A DNA stretch of 64,000 nucleotides, taken from contig JAPLZF010000009.1 of the NCBI GenBank assembly GCA_026395175.1, positions 82,083 through 146,082 on the forward strand, in the 5' to 3' direction. A model generated the notes under the pieces. The model ran no database searches, had not been told where the DNA came from, and saw only the letters and a program-made list of their open reading frames with translations. How positions within the stretch are numbered: the stretch's first letter is position 1; every line of letters starts with the position of its first letter. Of the stretch, positions 17,626 to 60,345 are shown one piece after another. The DNA is from Candidatus Staskawiczbacteria bacterium. Its GTDB lineage: Bacteria > Patescibacteriota > Minisyncoccia > Minisyncoccales > Staskawiczbacteraceae. The translations under genes and the position numbers were made by a program.

Positions 17626-17841
17626 AAATTTGCGCTTGAATTTTTCTCGTATTCCCGTTTTTTATCAAACCTTATGATTCAAAATACTTTTCATAGTCAA
17701 AATATAAATAATAAAAGCCAGCTTTTAAGCCCCCCCCCCTAAACTTTTGCCTGTTTTAGAAAAATGTAAAGTGATGTACAAAAAGTGGATTGAAATGCAC
17801 CGCAATATTGAAAGAACTGCAAGATTTAGCAAAAGAAAACA

Positions 17842-17949
17842 TTAGCTGGAGATCACCTGGTTGCCGGCATTCCATTCGTTCGGATTCTCAACAGAGTTGG
17901 CGTTCACGTTCCAATAGCGATTGTCAGAGTTCCAGTTCGCGTTCACAGC
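17842..17949 (-). pseudogene. 3' fragment paralogous to the C-terminus of gene 18282-18944 (AVNANWNSDNRYWNVNANSVENPNEWNAGNQVISS*)
   Basis: About 85% DNA identity to 18295-18405. An in-frame TAA lies immediately upstream, so only about 35 codons are intact. Confidence 0.5.
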
Positions 17950-18281
17950 CCAGACCGATTATATGCAACACGCCATCACAACCACTGTCCTTTGAATACT
18001 CTTGGGACTGTATCTTATTTGGGACATAAAAGTCCTCCAGCGCGCTACACCGATTCTTTTCTTTTTTAGAAACTTGCATAATGACGCTTGTTGAAGACTT
18101 GTCCGCAACAATTCTGCAATATACAATTTCAAGGCGCTACGCAAAAGCCTTAACCTCCACGTTCAGCTATCCTTAGATTTATTTTACATTTTTTTGTGAA
18201 AATAAAAAGACTCTCCTTTACTTTTCAAAGTTTCAGAGAGCCATAGATTCTGAGAGTCCAAAGTCCCGAAGGGCTTTAGAG

Positions 18282-18944
18282 TCAAGAATCGCAAGAGAGG
18301 ACCTGGCTGCCAGCAAACCACACGTCCGGATTCTCAACAGAGTAGGCGTGCACGCTCCAATAGCGATTGACAGAGTTCCAGTTCGCGATCACAGCCCAGA
18401 CATTGCCGTCTTTTCCTGAGATATGCATGACGTTCGCACGCCCATTAACGAGCAATTTGCCCTCTTCTCCATGTGCCTGTTTTTTAATCAGGCAAAATAG
18501 GTAAGCGAGGTAAGCTCTGGCAAGATCGCCTAACTCAGCGATGATTTGTGGGTCTTTGGAGTCCAACTCCAACCGATGAATCGCGAGCGTGGCGTCAGGA
18601 ACGTTTTCTTCCACAAGATTGAGGAATTGTTCCTTGAAGACGTCGTTAGTCCAACCGACGTTAGCTTCTGCGAGATGGTCTTTGGCGATAAACTTCTTCG
18701 CGCCATCGACCGACGCCGTCGCAATCTTCATGAGAATACCGCCAACACGCCCACCTTTGGCCAGAAACTGAAGGAAACGTCCAAAGAAATCATCCTGGCT
18801 GTCGTTCACGATTTGTTGAGCAGTGGCACAGGATACGTCCCAATCCATCTTCCCTGTTACCACCTCAACACTCATCTTGATGAATGCCTTGAAAAGCATC
18901 ATCAAAATTTCTCCCAATTGCTCAACACTCATCCTGTCCTTCAT
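18282..18944 (-). CDS. Hypothetical protein, member 2 of the GC-rich paralogous family (C-terminal ...NRYWSVHAYSVENPDVWFAGSQVL)
   Basis: GC-rich ORF with the conserved promoter-leader upstream. Its C-terminal motif NP..W..G.QVL and internal AELG segment are shared with gene 417-1055. Start uncertain (MKDR or MSVEQ); the track start uses TTG. Confidence 0.55.
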   Translation of the reverse strand: MKDRMSVEQLGEILMMLFKAFIKMSVEVVTGKMDWDVSCATAQQIVNDSQDDFFGRFLQFLAKGGRVGGILMKIATASVDGAKKFIAKDHLAEANVGWTNDVFKEQFLNLVEENVPDATLAIHRLELDSKDPQIIAELGDLARAYLAYLFCLIKKQAHGEEGKLLVNGRANVMHISGKDGNVWAVIANWNSVNRYWSVHAYSVENPDVWFAGSQVLSCDS

Positions 18945-19146
18945 TGTATGAACCTTTTTTGCGGCTACTGTTGCTCTCGCCACAAGGCAGAGCAAGCTCA
19001 ACGCATACTGTGGCAACCCTTTGCCACACCAGAAAATTATCTGTTTCTCAAATCTCTTTCTGGCATGGCAAAAACAAGTATTTTTAAATTATAAATGTGC
19101 CAATTTACTATTTATTAATTATACACCCTCTATCAATTATTGTCAA
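18945..19146 (-). promoter_or_regulatory. Conserved promoter-leader cassette L3: perfect TTGACA (19141-19146, rc), 17 nt, TATAAT (19118-19123, rc), plus the leader hairpin (about 19021-19073)
   Basis: caagtatttttaaattataaatgtgccaatttactatttattaattatacaccc aligns to 1170-1235. The hairpin sequence differs from L1 but pairing is preserved. Confidence 0.6.
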
Positions 19147-25025: not shown

Positions 25026-25109
25026 GCCGAGGTGGTGAAATTGGCAAACACGCCGGACTCAAAATCCGGTGCCCTTAAAAGCTTGAGGGTTCAAGTCCCT
25101 CCCTCGGCA
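25026..25109 (+). tRNA. tRNA-Leu (anticodon CAA), long variable arm, CCA not encoded
   Basis: Acceptor stem GCCGAGG/CCTCGGC, anticodon loop CTCAAAA, T arm GAGGGTTCAAGTCCCTC. Confidence 0.8.
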
Positions 25110-25137
25110 CACTTCACTTTGTTCAGTGTGAACAACT

Positions 25138-33864: not shown

Positions 33865-33886
33865 CGCTTTAACCTGTTTTAAAGTC

Positions 33887-33915
33887 TTGACATAATCAAC
33901 AAATATGATAATATT
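33887..33915 (+). promoter_or_regulatory. Sigma70-like promoter (TTGACA-17-AATATT) for the small GC-rich gene
   Basis: Consensus -35 with correct spacing, followed by AAGGGAGG-N7-ATG. Confidence 0.55.
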
Positions 33916-33943
33916 CAGTCAACACAACTAAGGGAGGTAACAC

Positions 33944-34153
33944 ATGAAAGCGAACGAAGCTGTTGACGCCTTGAAAAAAGGCACTGGACTGGTCGCTTTT
34001 CGACCAAGCTGGGAAAAGGGCGAGTATCTATTTGTTACGGGAGGAAACGGAAGTGCGTGGGACGTCCACGATACGTTCAAAAAACCTCGTACACAAAAGC
34101 AAATGCTCGCCGACGCAGAGGCCAATGACTGGAGGGTTCAACTACTTGTATAA
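33944..34153 (+). CDS. DUF2829-like small protein (Tad2-like fold family), GC-rich self-contained module
   Basis: EAVDALKKGTGLVAFRPSW...YLFV...SAW...MLADAEANDWRV fits the DUF2829 pattern; strong RBS. Confidence 0.55.
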   Translation: MKANEAVDALKKGTGLVAFRPSWEKGEYLFVTGGNGSAWDVHDTFKKPRTQKQMLADAEANDWRVQLLV

Positions 34154-34204
34154 TGGAGCCCCCTCCCAAACAGAACCGCCGAGGTTTCGACCCGGCGGTG
34201 AACA

Positions 34205-34237
34205 AAGCGCGAGACTTCGGTCCCGCGCTGTTTTATT
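34205..34237 (+). terminator. Intrinsic terminator (agcgcgagacttcggtcccgcgct then gttttattg)
   Basis: GC hairpin plus T-run, preceded by a second hairpin ccgccg...cggcgg. Confidence 0.6.
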
Positions 34238-34345
34238 GCACATTTAACTGCCATCACATTTCCAGCGATAGCATAAAATCTGACACCACCTATTTTACAT
34301 ACTTTTTAAAAATATTTCGGGTTAATGAGTATTAACCTGCGCGAA

Positions 34346-51034: not shown

Positions 51035-51481
51035 ATGAAGATATTCAGTGAAAACAAAAAGGCGGGGTTTAACTATGAAATCCTAGAGAAGTTTGAAGCC
51101 GGGATGGTTTTGTTTGGCCAGGAAGTTAAATCAATAAAAACCGGGCACATCAATTTGTCCGGGTCTTATGTTGTTTTTAACAGGTCAGAGCCCTATTTAA
51201 CCGGCGTAAAAGTGCCTCCATACCAGCCAAACAACATTGGAGCCGACTATAATGAAGAAAGGCAAAGAAAACTTCTTTTAAACAAAAAAGAGATAGATTA
51301 TTTGGCGGGCAAGACCAAAACCAAGGGTTTTAGCTTAATACCCTTGAAAATTTATGAGAACAATGGTAGAATAAAACTCGAATTCGGGTTAGCCCGCGGA
51401 AAGAAGAAATTCGACAAAAAGGAGAAAATTAAAAAACGGGATGTCGACCGAGAGGTTAATCGCGAATTATCACGGGGATGA
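51035..51481 (+). CDS. smpB: SsrA-binding protein
   Basis: GFNYEILEKFEAGMVL..EVKS SmpB signature. Confidence 0.85.
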   Translation: MKIFSENKKAGFNYEILEKFEAGMVLFGQEVKSIKTGHINLSGSYVVFNRSEPYLTGVKVPPYQPNNIGADYNEERQRKLLLNKKEIDYLAGKTKTKGFSLIPLKIYENNGRIKLEFGLARGKKKFDKKEKIKKRDVDREVNRELSRG

Positions 51482-51827
51482 TTGTTTCGATGACTAGTTC
51501 TTTAAAACAAGGCAAGTTAAGCTTTCTCAGGGCTTATAAATCTTCTGGGAAAAAACATAATTGCTACTAATTTATTTAATAGACAACCAGCATTAGCTTT
51601 CGCTTAATGCGGCATCTCAACCATTGACTCCTAATAAATGGACCTGAGGTGTTATATTATTAGGATAGGAATTCTGAGTCCTTGGCAGATTTCCAAAATA
51701 AAAAGGATAAGATGTTAAAAATTTTGCTATTTCTTTATTTGACATCCTAAAAAACAGAACTAGCTAAACTTGTAGAATTGCTTTAGAAAACTTTTCAGAC
51801 GCGATTTCAACATCGCCATCTCCACCA
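51474..51827 (+). ncRNA. ssrA: tmRNA (SsrA); its 5' GGGGATG pairs with 3' CATCTCC-A-CCA; predicted tag ATNLFNRQPALAFA
   Basis: tRNA-like 3' end GACGCGATTTCAACATCGCCATCTCCACCA and 5' GGGGATGATTGTTTCGATGAC resemble E. coli tmRNA; the candidate tag reading frame ends in TAA; sits downstream of smpB. Confidence 0.75.
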
Positions 51828-57317: not shown

Positions 57318-57623
57318 TTATATTTTATACACCTTATACCCTTCGTGAACTTTTTCATCTATCTTCATCCCCACCGAATCGCCCTTTTTTGCCGACTTCA
57401 CCTCTTTGTGGTCAATTTGCATAGAACCGGCTTTCTGCTCAAAATCAGTTTCTTGCCCACCAATTATCCTAATTTTATCTCCTTTTTTTAATGGAACGGT
57501 TAACTTAATAACTGCCACCTCAATATTGGAAAAATAATGTGTTATTTGGCCAATTAATTTTCCCTGCTTTTTAATTTTTACCATATTTTTTATTGTTTTA
57601 ATACTATTGTTATACTTTATCAA
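57318..57623 (-). CDS. Hypothetical small beta-rich protein
   Basis: ORF only. Confidence 0.4.
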   Translation of the reverse strand: MIKYNNSIKTIKNMVKIKKQGKLIGQITHYFSNIEVAVIKLTVPLKKGDKIRIIGGQETDFEQKAGSMQIDHKEVKSAKKGDSVGMKIDEKVHEGYKVYKI

Positions 57624-57877
57624 AAAATTTGCTGCAGAGCAACAAAAAACACCAGCTTTACAGCTGATGGACTTTGTTGGAGGGGGATAATAATTCCTAA
57701 CAAAAATGGATTATTTCTCGAGATAAATTCGGACAATGAATTTATGTATAATACTTATACCCTCTTCGTTAAAAACTATTATGTCCTTGAGGATAAACCT
57801 CGCACCCCCTCATAATAATTATTTTATTCTATTTTAAGCCGATGTCAAATTTTTATTCACTTTTTATCTGCAAGGGC

Positions 57878-57906
57878 TTGACACAATTTTTAGTTGGGAC
57901 TATGCT
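57878..57906 (+). promoter_or_regulatory. Sigma70-like promoter (TTGACA-17-TATGCT) driving a GC-rich orphan transcript
   Basis: Consensus -35, 17 nt spacer, near-consensus -10. Confidence 0.55.
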
Positions 57907-57912
57907 TAAATA

Positions 57913-58412
57913 ACCTAGTGTTCTTCGCGCTTCGCCACAGAAGAGGAAGTAGTACAATACACTACACACGACAAACAACACGATCAACCTGGCGAAAGGA
58001 GGGCCAATAAGCAAGACCCACGAACACTCTTCTGATGAAGAGGCCGAAGACACGATGAGGTGTAGTATAGCCACCATTGTTGTGGCACGCGACGAAGTCG
58101 GAAGACGACAAGGCAAGGAGAACTTCCATGATGCACCGGACAATGATGAAGCGAATCGTCGGCCTGACGATCGCAACGGCCGAAGTAGTGCGCGGTGTCG
58201 AGAGCAACATCGGCGTAACGGCCGGCTAGGTCCAAGTTGCTGTGACCTTGATGGTTGTGTGGCTGGGCTGCCCGCGGGCGAAATTGCTTGCTTCGGCGAG
58301 CGATATCCGGTGGGCAGCCCGCTCACAACAACAGTTCTTTGACATCAACCAGTCCTATCGCATGATAGGACATAACCCAGGAGCAACAACACACACGTTG
58401 CTCAATTTTTTT
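57913..58412 (+). ncRNA. Candidate structured ncRNA or small-ORF transcript (about 500 nt, GC-rich), delimited by a promoter and a rho-independent terminator; no convincing ORF
   Basis: All three minus frames are open (GC artefact). The plus ORFs are low-complexity. Strong internal hairpin gggctgcccgc...gggcagccc. Terminator gagcaac-loop-gttgctc then ttttttt. Confidence 0.4.
58381..58412 (+). terminator. Intrinsic terminator (gagcaacaacacacacgttgctcaattttttt)
   Basis: 7-bp stem plus T7. Confidence 0.65.
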
Positions 58413-58457
58413 ACAAAAAAACAAGCCTTTTAATAAGACTTGCTTTAAAATTTAAAT

Positions 58458-59429
58458 TTATTTGACTCGCGAGAATCTGGTAAAGCCGGAGCACGGGACA
58501 ATTTCAATTCCCTGTTTTTCCAATTCATCCATAAACAAATTAACTCCCAAAGAATCAGAAGAAATATGTCCGGCAATTACAATGTTAACATGGGCAGACT
58601 CTGCCTCTTTTTTGTGCTCTTCAGAAATATGCATTGCAATTGATGTGCCAATTCCAGCTTGCGCCATTTTTTCATACATTTTTGGCGAGCCCTCTGTGCC
58701 TCCTGTAATCTCAGACATGGCAATTTTTCCGCATCTGTTTTCTGAGCTTCCCACAAATATCTTAGGGCCCACTCCAATTTTCATCGCCTCCTTATATTCC
58801 GGTATTTCTTTTAAAATGTTTATTATTTCTCCAACTGTTTGTGGTTTTTTTGCTTCAAGCAAATCTTTCAAAAATTTTGCAGCTAAGTTGTCGCAAGGAG
58901 TGTGAGAATTCATTAAATTAACTTTCATAAGCCTGGCCGAGTCAACTGTTCTTTGATGGTTTGAGGCATTAAGGCCCCTGGCAACTTCAGAAATTCTTTC
59001 TTTCATCAAGCCCTCGGCAACATTAATTGGCACGCCATAATAGTTGTAAACATCTGCCTGCAATTCCATAACATCGGCCAGTTGGGCCAATCCTTTTCCA
59101 ATTGGATGATGGGCAATAACTAAATCTATCCCTCCTCCGTCGGGACCTGCGGTATCACTCAATTCTTTTGCCATCAAAATTTCTGCAGGAGCGATGTCAA
59201 TTCCAACCAAAACTTTCTTGATTTCTTTGTCATCGGCAATATTATAAATGCCAGAATCCAAGTAAGGGTTTTCCAAGGCGTCCTTATCAAACTCTTCTTT
59301 GTCTTTTTCCGACAATCTATCAAATGCGCGCCTTTTATTATCCAATAATTTCTGCACGCCCTCTTTGCCCCTAAAATCGGACTCAACCCCCATTTTAAGC
59401 GCTAAATTAAAAATATCTTGTATCTTCAT
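58458..59429 (-). CDS. Nif3-family dinuclear metal centre protein
   Basis: IDLVIAHHP and C-terminal IAGHISSD motifs. Confidence 0.65.
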   Translation of the reverse strand: MKIQDIFNLALKMGVESDFRGKEGVQKLLDNKRRAFDRLSEKDKEEFDKDALENPYLDSGIYNIADDKEIKKVLVGIDIAPAEILMAKELSDTAGPDGGGIDLVIAHHPIGKGLAQLADVMELQADVYNYYGVPINVAEGLMKERISEVARGLNASNHQRTVDSARLMKVNLMNSHTPCDNLAAKFLKDLLEAKKPQTVGEIINILKEIPEYKEAMKIGVGPKIFVGSSENRCGKIAMSEITGGTEGSPKMYEKMAQAGIGTSIAMHISEEHKKEAESAHVNIVIAGHISSDSLGVNLFMDELEKQGIEIVPCSGFTRFSRVK

Positions 59430-59682: not shown

Positions 59683-60204
59683 TCAGTAAAAGTACAGCGT
59701 CACAGAATCTATCTCAATTCCGTAACCATCCCCTCCACTGATGACCAAATAGAGGATACGGTCATCACCACCGCTCTCGACATTGGCCGGGCCGATTTTG
59801 AGGCTTTCAGAAAAAACATTCCAGCCGTTGCCCCCGCTACCGGTACTGCCGGCTGTGAACGAGCCGATAAACTCGGCCCCGACGGCGAGCGTCACCCGTT
59901 CGGATATAGGACTGCCATTATCGTTCGAATACCTGACGCTAACCCACAACTTGGTGGCGCCCGGCGGGACGGAGAAATTCTTATCAATTGACTCGCCGGC
60001 ACGCAGGTGAACCGTCCAATCGTTCTGGGCGTTGCCCCGTTGCTGTTTATAACCGTCTCCTTCAAACTTCTCCGCCGGGATTTGTACCTGTTTGAGCAAG
60101 GGACCGCTTAATAACGGCTGAAGCAGAGAACAGCCCGTCATTACCGGCGCTGTTAACAGCAGCGCCATTGCCAACACCATAAACCACCACTTCGATTTCT
60201 TCAT
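59683..60204 (-). CDS. Lipoprotein, member 3 of the GC-rich paralogous family (C-terminal LYLVISGGDGYGIEIDSVTLY)
   Basis: Signal peptide with a lipobox (VMTGC); RBS AGGAGGG; the conserved leader lies upstream; GGDG C-terminal motif shared with gene 417-1055. Confidence 0.6.
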   Translation of the reverse strand: MKKSKWWFMVLAMALLLTAPVMTGCSLLQPLLSGPLLKQVQIPAEKFEGDGYKQQRGNAQNDWTVHLRAGESIDKNFSVPPGATKLWVSVRYSNDNGSPISERVTLAVGAEFIGSFTAGSTGSGGNGWNVFSESLKIGPANVESGGDDRILYLVISGGDGYGIEIDSVTLYFY

Positions 60205-60345
60205 GACCTTTACCCTCCTGTGTTGCTTAAGCTGCTGCTATAGCAGTCATAGCCAGAAAACACCGACTAATAATATCAGTATCTTTTGGCTACAACTGCT
60301 AATTTCGCAAGTAATTTTTAAGTGTAAATGTGCTGATTTATCAAG
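60205..60345 (-). promoter_or_regulatory. Conserved leader L2 with hairpin (60242-60300); its upstream end overlaps the 3' end of the Mur ligase gene
   Basis: About 90% identity to 1110-1185 over roughly 75 nt; a C-to-T change keeps pairing as G-U. Confidence 0.55.

Follow-up and report, generated by a model that had tools for sequence, protein, structure and literature searches.

Introduction

The leader of bacterial ribosomal RNA (rrn) operons carries an antitermination signal made up of boxB, boxA, and boxC and served by NusB-NusE, NusA, NusG, SuhB, and S4. In these operons boxA lies near the 5′ end, before kilobases of untranslated RNA, and the boxA of CRISPR arrays likewise lies near the 5′ end of a long untranslated RNA. 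Complexes of the rrn type overcome Rho-dependent termination far better than strong intrinsic terminators. Lambda-type nut sites also contain boxA, together with short GNRA-like hairpins, lambda boxB being GCCCUGAAAAAGGGC. Here, we describe an RNA element with a boxA-like sequence near its 3′ end, located in a 64-kb stretch of DNA from a Candidatus Staskawiczbacteria bacterium (assembly GCA_026395175.1, contig JAPLZF010000009.1, positions 82,083 to 146,082), referred to below as the window. By analogy, it would act most nearly as if an rrn leader antitermination signal had been joined to a stable RNA that bears STAB-SD elements.

Outside rRNA operons, boxA has been described in mRNA 5′ untranslated regions (UTRs) of the suhB type in E. 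coli and Salmonella, with the functional consensus GYTCTTTAANA (PMC5725501). STAB-SD is a non-initiating Shine-Dalgarno (SD) sequence that binds 30S, blocks RNase J1, and stabilizes the RNA; the Gram-positive cry3A example is a single element in an mRNA 5′ UTR (PMC4113751). A third group for comparison comprises OLE, ROOL, GOLLD, and raiA, long GC-rich RNAs from purine-rich intergenic islands of low-GC genomes, with their own promoter and terminator (PMC6429828, PMC11109978).

The host lineage, the Candidate Phyla Radiation (CPR)/Patescibacteria, is marked by very small genomes; experimental genetics is almost absent, and very few non-coding RNAs (ncRNAs) have been described. Genomes of this size invest considerably when they keep a structured RNA of 260–710 nt with its own promoter and terminator, sometimes in tandem. 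The sequence conserved best in this RNA corresponds to the Nus-loading signal of rRNA operons, placed where the known job of that signal is impossible. We favor the reading that the element is a structured ncRNA gene of a small family outside Rfam with a Nus-binding and 30S-binding function, and assign this statement as a whole a probability of about 0.5.

A GC-Rich Structured Transcription Unit

All coordinates are positions in the window. The unit found there is called the window unit, L-numbers denote loci of relatives, and A and B denote tandem units. The window unit comprises the following features, where MFE stands for minimum free energy and ORF for open reading frame.

57878..57906 (+): sigma-70-type promoter, TTGACA at 57878–57883, 17 nt, TATGCT at 57901–57906; 10/12 matches
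57907..58412 (+): predicted non-coding RNA, ∼500 nt (506 nt as 57907–58412), based on GC content, fold, G-U orientation, and the null result in Rfam
57918..57927 (+): 5′ strand of helix P1, GUGUUCUUCG, within the conserved motif UAGUGUUYUU; pairs with 58045–58053
57938..57945 (+): 5′ strand of helix P2, CAGAAGAG; pairs with CUCUUCUG at 58027–58034
57960..57989 (+): CA-rich, G-poor stretch cactacacacgacaaacaacacgatcaacc, unpaired in the MFE fold
57994..58002 (+): SD-like motif GAAAGGAGG, held in a short hairpin loop (UGGC...GCCA) and not followed by a usable start codon
58027..58034 (+): 3′ strand of P2, CUCUUCUG, within the block ACTCTTCTGA, which is invariant in the window unit, L004A, and L004B
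58045..58053 (+): 3′ strand of P1, CGAAGACAC, within the conserved block GAAGRCACRAAGCGA
58115..58229 (+): AAGGAG at 58115–58120 and a 33-codon mini-ORF at 58128–58229; the site of SD and AUG is kept among units, the peptide is not
58261..58324 (+): large GC-rich hairpin in the boxB position of an rrn leader, GGCTGGGCTGCCC at 58261–58273 with GGGCAGCCCGCTC at 58312–58324
58334..58344 (+): boxA-like sequence GUUCUUUGACA, one mismatch to GYTCTTTAANA, single-stranded in the predicted fold
58352..58371 (+): hairpin h1, GUCCUAUC, loop GCAU, GAUAGGAC
58381..58412 (+): intrinsic terminator, GAGCAAC at 58381–58387, 9-nt loop, GUUGCUC at 58397–58403, AA, and U7 at 58406–58412

The initial annotation, made from the sequence of the window alone, had described this stretch as an orphan GC-rich unit of about 500 nt between a consensus promoter and an intrinsic terminator, with a strong internal hairpin and no credible long ORF, and had left open whether it encodes a structured ncRNA or a small protein. 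The promoter and terminator are both present, as is the hairpin. On its own, the window promoter is not beyond chance, because a promoter scan finds nine promoter-like sites in 2.5 kb, compared with 6.7 ± 2.8 in shuffled sequence. A promoter of the TTGAC(A/T/G)-17-TATGCT/TATATT/TAGAAT type nevertheless recurs at the same place in each complete homologous unit. In the window it adjoins, back to back, the minus-strand promoter (57848 to 57821) of the leader of p101, the neighboring gene. The 5′ end of the predicted RNA is expected near 57912–57914. The terminator was missed by our terminator scanner, which is limited to loops of 3–8 nt; a hairpin followed by a U-run (U7–8) closes each homologous unit. 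Apparent covariation within the terminator was excluded from the evidence.

Composition and predicted fold both set the stretch apart. GC content is 0.55–0.605 in 200-nt windows between 57901 and 58401, compared with 0.365 for the whole window, and on the plus strand of this island A exceeds T and G exceeds C. The plus strand (57907–58412) folds with an MFE of −186.5 kcal/mol, compared with −150.4 ± 6.3 for dinucleotide shuffles (z = −5.73); the complementary strand gives z = −2.89. The sense strands of the remaining units reach z = −3.5 to −6.6, each beating its own dinucleotide shuffles. Together with the covarying helices described below, these data make it probable that the GC-rich stretch is a genuine structured ncRNA gene.

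Homologous Units with Covarying Helices

The unit is not an orphan. By reading the gap between the NIF3-like gene and p101 in relatives, we identified diverged homologs, and the resulting family holds 10 homologous units in seven genomes of Candidatus Staskawiczbacteria (Patescibacteria/CPR). All 10 lie in the NIF3-p101 gap and are oriented convergently with NIF3; three genomes (L004, L076, and L091) carry tandem pairs. Copies identical to the window element are present on two Logan contigs, and such contigs occur, for example, in the read sets SRR20698650 and SRR20698651. The loci of relatives are as follows.

L004: two tandem units, 541 and 442 nt
L057: one unit, 604 nt; the sole true match of a strict pattern in JGI metagenomes
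L013: minimal unit, 259 nt
L076 (identical to L077): two tandem units, 710 and 533 nt
L089: divergent unit, 403 nt
L091 (identical to L092): a partial unit and a 259-nt unit

Profile searches (nhmmer) with the whole element and with its 3′ core recovered no further copy in the window or in ∼90 loci, and BLASTN found no match in 50,697 phage records. Matches to boxA-based patterns in IMG/VR proved to be calicivirus-like RdRp genes and promoter or ribosome binding site (RBS) regions of Firmicutes phages, and were rejected as homologs. The family is lineage specific and so far comes only from Candidatus Staskawiczbacteria.

A shared structural feature of the 5′ domain is helix P1, in which the motif UAGUGUUYUU pairs with a partner (...AAGRCAC) ∼120–190 nt downstream and closes the first domain. 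P1 shows compensatory changes across the window unit, L004A, L004B, L057, L076A, L076B, and L091B. On the opposite strand its U-G pairs (GUGUUUUCA/UGAAGGCAC) would turn into C-A mismatches, which fixes the orientation of the element as plus. The pairing of P2 is retained as CAGAAGA/UCUUCUG in L004A and as CAGAGGAG/CUCUUCUG, with a G-U pair, in L004B. A conserved linker, RAAGCGA, precedes a further AAGGAG with its AUG site, and the section between this AUG site and the large hairpin is highly variable among units.

Covariation resumes in the large hairpin, which encloses an inner stem-loop (GCUUGCUUCGGCGAGC) and whose 3′ strand reads GAGCAGCCYGCUCACAA in most units. Across the 8 bp beside CUCACAA, compensatory double changes occur at five positions, and none of the 48 cells scored in six units is unpaired; examples are CAGGCUGC/GCAGCCUG, CGGGCCGC/GCGGCCCG, and CAGACUGC/GCAGUCUG. 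Hairpin h1 has equivalents in eight of the 10 units (not L089 or L091B), with a GCAA loop in three of them and with compensatory changes. A further hairpin, h2 (CCU-GAAAGG-AGG), is found in L004A, L004B, L057, and L091A, is degenerate in L076A, and is missing in the window copy. In L091A, a U-G pair of h2 has become U-A through a G-to-A change. Mean column identity among units is ∼56%–62% in MAFFT alignments. Because these whole-unit alignments are unreliable in the variable middle, helices were registered by hand, without a covariance model.

A boxA-like Sequence near the 3′ End

The best-conserved primary sequence of the family is a boxA-like GYUCUUUNACA, present at the equivalent position in 10/10 units, 3–12 nt past the large hairpin. 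The individual sequences are listed here.

Window unit: GTTCTTTGACA
L004A, L057, L091A: GTTCTTTTACA
L004B: GTTCATTAACA
L013: GCTCTTTAACA
L076A: GCTCTTTCACA
L076B: GTTCGTTCACA
L089: GCCCTTTTACA
L091B: GTTCCTTCACA

Measured against GYTCTTTAANA, a gamma-proteobacterial consensus, the L013 sequence is perfect and those of the window unit, L004A, L004B, L057, L091A, and L076A each have one mismatch. The L013 unit is moreover identical over 17 nt (UGCUCUUUAACAAUUUA) to the boxA region of the E. coli rrn leader. At the E. coli locus that was read, UGCUCUUUAACAAUUUA lies ∼95–145 nt upstream of the 16S rRNA gene, after a hairpin, and it occurs a median of seven times in each E. coli genome. In MFE folds of most units, boxA is unpaired between the large hairpin and h1, whereas it is partly paired in L013 and L076A.

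As in an rrn leader, then, a predicted stable boxB-type hairpin is followed within 3–12 nt by a single-stranded boxA that matches the consensus, and the host RNA is untranslated, GC rich, and preceded by a strong promoter. Judged from sequence, the 3′ module appears to match a boxB-boxA signal of the rrn type in both order and character. The two differ in placement. In the element, boxA is not promoter proximal but follows ∼150–600 nt of RNA and precedes the terminator by 70–140 nt, with no rRNA, tRNA, or other gene next and no long untranslated transcript downstream; past the window boxA come only h1, the strong terminator, and the convergent NIF3 gene. The element is therefore not a member of the rrn-leader class. 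Position 8 of its motif is also variable, and Nus binding is putative; we regard the chances of the boxA-like sequence being a genuine Nus site as even.

Two other boxA systems invite comparison. Like the suhB-type boxA, the one described here lies outside rRNA operons, and L004A, L004B, and L057 have a perfect SD in h2, 32–54 nt past boxA, a spacing that resembles the boxA-to-RBS distance in regulated mRNAs. No ORF follows the h2 SD, so that boxA has nothing to repress, unlike in the suhB type. Lambda-type nut sites share the combination of boxA with short GNRA-like hairpins, and h2 (GCGCCU-GAAAGG-AGGCGC) recalls lambda boxB. In contrast to nut sites, the main hairpin of the element precedes boxA, which is the rrn order, and boxA and h2 are separated by 32–54 nt, compared with about 8 in a nut site. 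None of the loci of the element has an N-like gene or a phage context.

The TTGACA within boxA (58339) was considered as an internal promoter and rejected, as no −10 element is conserved in other units; this hexamer owes its conservation solely to lying within boxA. The conserved 5′ motif (UGUUCUUUGAAU in L004A), which is paired in P1, resembles boxA in its Gram-positive form, a likeness given little weight.

Sequences resembling boxA also occur elsewhere among the loci. In relative L017, the 5′ UTR equivalent to that of the GC-rich cassette genes described in the last section opens directly past its promoter with a perfect boxA, GCTCTTTAACAA. L078 (at about 121) and L079 (at about 5889) carry boxA-like GTTCTTTAACA and GCTCTTTTAAA, respectively, a few nucleotides before the RBS of small ORFs, a layout that recalls suhB-type regulation. 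These three loci suggest that the clade uses boxA outside rRNA. An unrelated phage contig, L066 (IMGVR_UViG_3300029813_000033), has three tandem boxA-like sequences (TTCTTTAACAATCT) before a strong RBS at about 1036–1092.

Shine-Dalgarno-like Motifs

The second recurrent signal of the family is SD-like. In the window unit, L004A, L004B, L057, and L013, AAGGAG occurs 12 times, compared with 1.6 ± 1.2 in dinucleotide shuffles, and AGGAG 17 times, compared with 4.4 ± 2.0. None of 500 shuffles attains the observed count of either motif, and the reverse complement is nearly devoid of both. Several of the motifs are extended to GAAAGGAGG(UG), with no start codon after them, and this extended form is presumably the complement of the 16S rRNA 3′ end. 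In domain 1, GAAAGGAG(G) recurs in the window unit, L004A, L004B, L057, and L076B, often in a hairpin loop, and in most units a CAAACAACA-like stretch lies close to an AAGGAG motif.

The resemblance to STAB-SD lies in these extended GAAAGGAGG motifs without a start codon, which could pair with the 16S 3′ end and block 5′-to-3′ decay. Whereas STAB-SD is a single element in an mRNA, the family has one to six copies along a non-coding RNA, some of them partly buried in stems.

One unit departs from this composition: the middle of L076B (L076 3464–3996, minus strand) is pyrimidine rich, with four CCUCC (anti-SD-like) motifs, and is not purine rich and GGAGG bearing as in the others. The idea that tandem A and B units act as antisense partners was discarded, since they have no reverse-complement similarity and their duplex energy is no better than that of shuffles.

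Comparison with Known RNA Classes

A search of the whole window against Rfam 15 at gathering scores returned only a transfer-messenger RNA (tmRNA; 51474–51827, plus strand, 95.8 bits) and one tRNA, tRNA-Leu(CAA) (25026–25110, plus strand). At E ≤ 10, the region 57600–58700 gave nothing credible in the GC-rich part, and at E ≤ 0.5 no unit in the seven loci with other units was matched. The classes covered include tmRNA, RNase P, 6S, SRP, OLE, ROOL, GOLLD, raiA, and HEARO, none of which matched the element. This search had been set beforehand as the refuting test, and its negative outcome bears out the earlier statements that the element is neither tmRNA nor RNase P. The element was also considered as the template RNA of a diversity-generating retroelement (DGR) and rejected: neither of its strands has an adenine-tolerant repeat anywhere in the 64-kb window, in a scan that recovers a genuine template repeat/variable repeat (TR/VR) pair.

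The family shares with OLE, ROOL, GOLLD, and raiA the long, GC-rich, purine-rich intergenic island that has a promoter and terminator of its own within a low-GC genome, and its units, at 260–710 nt, contain several covarying helices. It differs from them in having no sequence or structure match to these classes (Rfam), a far more variable middle, and a narrower taxonomic range. To our knowledge, neither tandem copies nor boxA have been described for these four RNAs. The family is absent from Rfam and from the literature searched, and belongs among the structured bacterial ncRNAs and the boxA-bearing untranslated RNAs.

Genomic Context

The NIF3-like protein that flanks the element (58458–59429, minus strand) is 100% identical to a protein of a Candidatus Staskawiczbacteria metagenome-assembled genome, and is 60%–88% identical across 47 loci of Staskawiczbacteria and other Patescibacteria. 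Along the minus strand, a Mur ligase gene is followed by a GC-rich lipoprotein gene, an ORF of 43 aa, NIF3, the gap, p101, p145, and genes for a PHP-like protein and GreA; p101 itself encodes a 101-aa protein (57318–57623, minus strand) with a weak match to EF-Tu domain 2. The NIF3 terminator lies on the minus strand at about 58450–58415, right past that of the element. Homologous units stop 10–50 nt from the NIF3 stop codon, and in L013 a single bidirectional terminator is shared by the unit and NIF3.

In most relatives the NIF3-p101 gap is only 170–400 nt long. In others it holds membrane-protein genes, a signal-peptide peptidase gene, tRNAs, or other GC-rich islands. The mostly short gap and the unrelated insertions elsewhere mark it as a variable hotspot. 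A check for tRNA-adjacent insertion found no tRNA at the borders of the element. A different GC-rich island of ∼350 nt occupies this hotspot in L082 (4600–4990), beside a tRNA; on the plus strand of that locus it begins with an SD and an ORF of six codons and ends in a terminator, and it has no Rfam match.

Proposed Function

We propose that the 3′ module may mimic the boxB-boxA antitermination signal of rRNA leaders and bind the NusB-S10 (NusE) pair, and that the SD-like motifs may pair with the 16S rRNA 3′ end, so that bound 30S would stabilize the untranslated RNA in the manner of STAB-SD. As a strong terminator follows boxA by 70–140 nt and nothing beyond it needs protection, classical antitermination in cis is not its most likely role. 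We favor instead the hypothesis that the mature, abundant RNA would hold or titrate Nus factors and/or 30S, as a decoy or as a ribonucleoprotein scaffold linked to ribosome synthesis. A decoy role in general nevertheless has a low probability, and we find slightly less probable still its specific form, in which a stable RNA that mimics the rRNA-leader signal and displays extended anti-16S motifs would sequester NusB-S10 and/or free 30S and thereby tune rRNA transcription and ribosome biogenesis in an ultra-small CPR cell or starve an invading phage of Nus factors. We know of no cellular RNA with a boxA-decoy role. Binding of NusB-S10 or 30S, if true, would represent a new way to link a regulatory RNA with ribosome synthesis, and would widen the range of boxA, known from rRNA, phage nut sites, suhB-type mRNAs, and CRISPR arrays.

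Several points weigh against the reading of a Nus- and 30S-binding ncRNA gene. The transcript and both of its ends are sequence-based predictions, and the covariation comes from only 10 units in related genomes, with a manual helix register and without a statistic of the R-scape type. Other GC-rich islands of the genome resemble foreign or mobile DNA, so that the high GC content of the element need not stem from structure alone. Absence from most close relatives makes the element dispensable. SD and AUG are kept at one site in most units, and the mini-ORF may be translated. The boxA-like sequence has two mismatches to the consensus in L076B, L089, and L091B, its position 8 varies, and at 427 nt into a 506-nt RNA it sits near the 3′ end, the wrong place for its known cis function. 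Finally, its NusB and S10 partners are assumed: no nusB, rpsJ, or csrA gene is present in the window or in the ∼90 loci.

Alternative Explanations

The alternative that survives best, although we consider it unlikely, is that the element is decaying foreign or duplicated DNA, either left over from a phage nut region or moron, or copied from the promoter and leader of an rRNA operon with loss of the genes downstream. The order of hairpin then boxA is that of an rrn leader. The patchy distribution among close relatives, in a variable hotspot with differing insertions elsewhere, would fit such an origin, as would the other GC-rich islands, whose genes look phage-like or mobile, namely a DGR target and a gene resembling Tad2. 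Decay does not readily account for compensatory substitutions that maintain helices despite the low mean column identity, for a promoter and terminator that are intact in each unit, or for tandem copies retained in three genomes.

Somewhat less probable is an action in cis, in which Nus factors loaded at boxA would cause read-through of the terminator and produce antisense RNA into NIF3, or would shield the p101 promoter from NIF3 read-through; either effect would regulate through transcriptional interference. The geometry is suggestive: all units converge on NIF3 and end close to its stop codon, L013 serves both with its bidirectional terminator, and boxA is the best-conserved primary sequence. 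Each unit has however retained a strong hairpin and U7–8 terminator, the kind against which rrn-type complexes perform poorly. In addition, the upstream unit of a tandem pair faces the second unit and not NIF3, and most relatives express NIF3 without such an element.

About equally improbable is a small-protein mRNA, in which the 33-aa ORF (58128–58229) or another short ORF is the product and the structure a regulatory UTR. This was the second possibility of the initial annotation, whose observation of a good RBS is correct: AAGGAG lies 7 nt before the ATG. An SD with an AUG recurs at a comparable place in most units, often as AUG-AAR/CAR-MGN in the first codons. What follows is not conserved. 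ORFs at the equivalent site encode 33, 8, 10 (L004B), 41, 40, 34, and 6 aa, with unrelated sequences. In L004B the hand-aligned AUG gives 8 aa, and the SD is too weak for the scan; in L013 there is a 14-aa ORF whose SD lies 14 nt from the AUG, and the SD-to-AUG spacing of both units is poor. The peptides so obtained (6, 8, 8, 14, 33, 34, 40, and 41 aa) have nothing in common, and their stop codons fall at differing positions; the 33-aa peptide is conserved in neither length nor sequence among the homologous loci. Indels between units ignore the reading frame.

Longer ORFs fare no better. The 95-aa ORF predicted by the gene caller (58055–58342) has no homolog and matches only itself among 5.8 billion proteins, in line with the earlier view that no long ORF here is credible. 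The accompanying remark that all three minus frames are open is not fully accurate, the ORFs there being 157, 83, 82, and 40 aa long. A small protein is therefore unlikely as the product of the element, and it would leave ∼400 nt of GC-rich, structurally conserved flanks unexplained. As to the two possibilities first offered, that of a structured ncRNA is strengthened by covarying helices across 10 units in seven genomes, whereas that of a small-protein gene loses ground with the unconserved peptide.

A sponge of the CsrB/RsmZ type, in which GGA motifs in loops sequester a CsrA-like repressor, is very improbable: although A(A)GGA(G) recurs, several times in loops (UGGC-GAAAGGAGG-GCCA and h2, CCU-GAAAGG-AGG), and tandem gene copies are common for sponge small RNAs, there are only one to six motifs per 260–710 nt, far below the roughly twenty of CsrB, the motif is the extended anti-16S GAAAGGAGG(UG) and not ANGGA, no csrA-like gene was found in the window or the ∼90 loci, and boxA is left unexplained.

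Neighboring Leader and Other Features of the Window

The boxA-bearing family, whatever its function, offers Rfam a defined candidate that can be tested. A second is the p101 operon's leader, transcribed away from the element.

57612–57815 (−): structured p101 leader, ∼200 nt; promoter 57848 to 57821, terminator-like hairpins 57669–57650 and 57646–57628

This leader is conserved in at least 18 loci of Staskawiczbacteria/Parcubacteria. Of the 41 pairs that RNAalifold predicts in it, 29 show compensatory changes, and an intrinsic terminator comes next. Its invariant blocks, AAGGAC and CAUUGUCCGAA, are mutually complementary (GGACA/UGUCC), and it has no match in Rfam 15. From its predicted fold, it looks like an undescribed riboswitch or protein-binding attenuator, and its case as a new RNA may be clearer than that of the boxA-bearing element.

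Elsewhere in the window, a small GC-rich island (33880–34260, plus strand) has its own TTGACA promoter, a strong RBS, and two terminator hairpins. Its 69-aa protein (33944–34153) has a weak Pfam match to Tad2 (Thoeris anti-defense 2), with E = 0.0013, below the curated cut-off.

The DGR repeats of the window form a TR/VR pair at 17838–17955 and 18284–18401 (minus strand), with a target ORF at 18282–19016 (minus strand). Comparison of the downstream copy with the GC-rich 244-aa ORF's 3′ end (...NWNSVNRYWSVHAYSVENPDVWFAGSQV) places the differences at adenines of the downstream copy, and the 40-nt segments tested contain 0 mismatches at other bases. Beside the repeats, no gene for a reverse transcriptase was seen.

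The GC-rich genes at 417–1121, 18282–19016, and 59683–60204, all on the minus strand, have AT-rich upstream modules in common: 1137–1184 matches 60269–60316, 1203–1245 matches 19104–19146, and 48–103 matches 17967–18022. The modules consist of a promoter (TTGACAA..GGGTGTATAATTAATAA), a long perfect 5′-UTR hairpin (TAGCAGTYGTAGCCA...TGGCTATGACTGCTA), and a block just before the DGR template, an arrangement that suggests a repeated cassette design.

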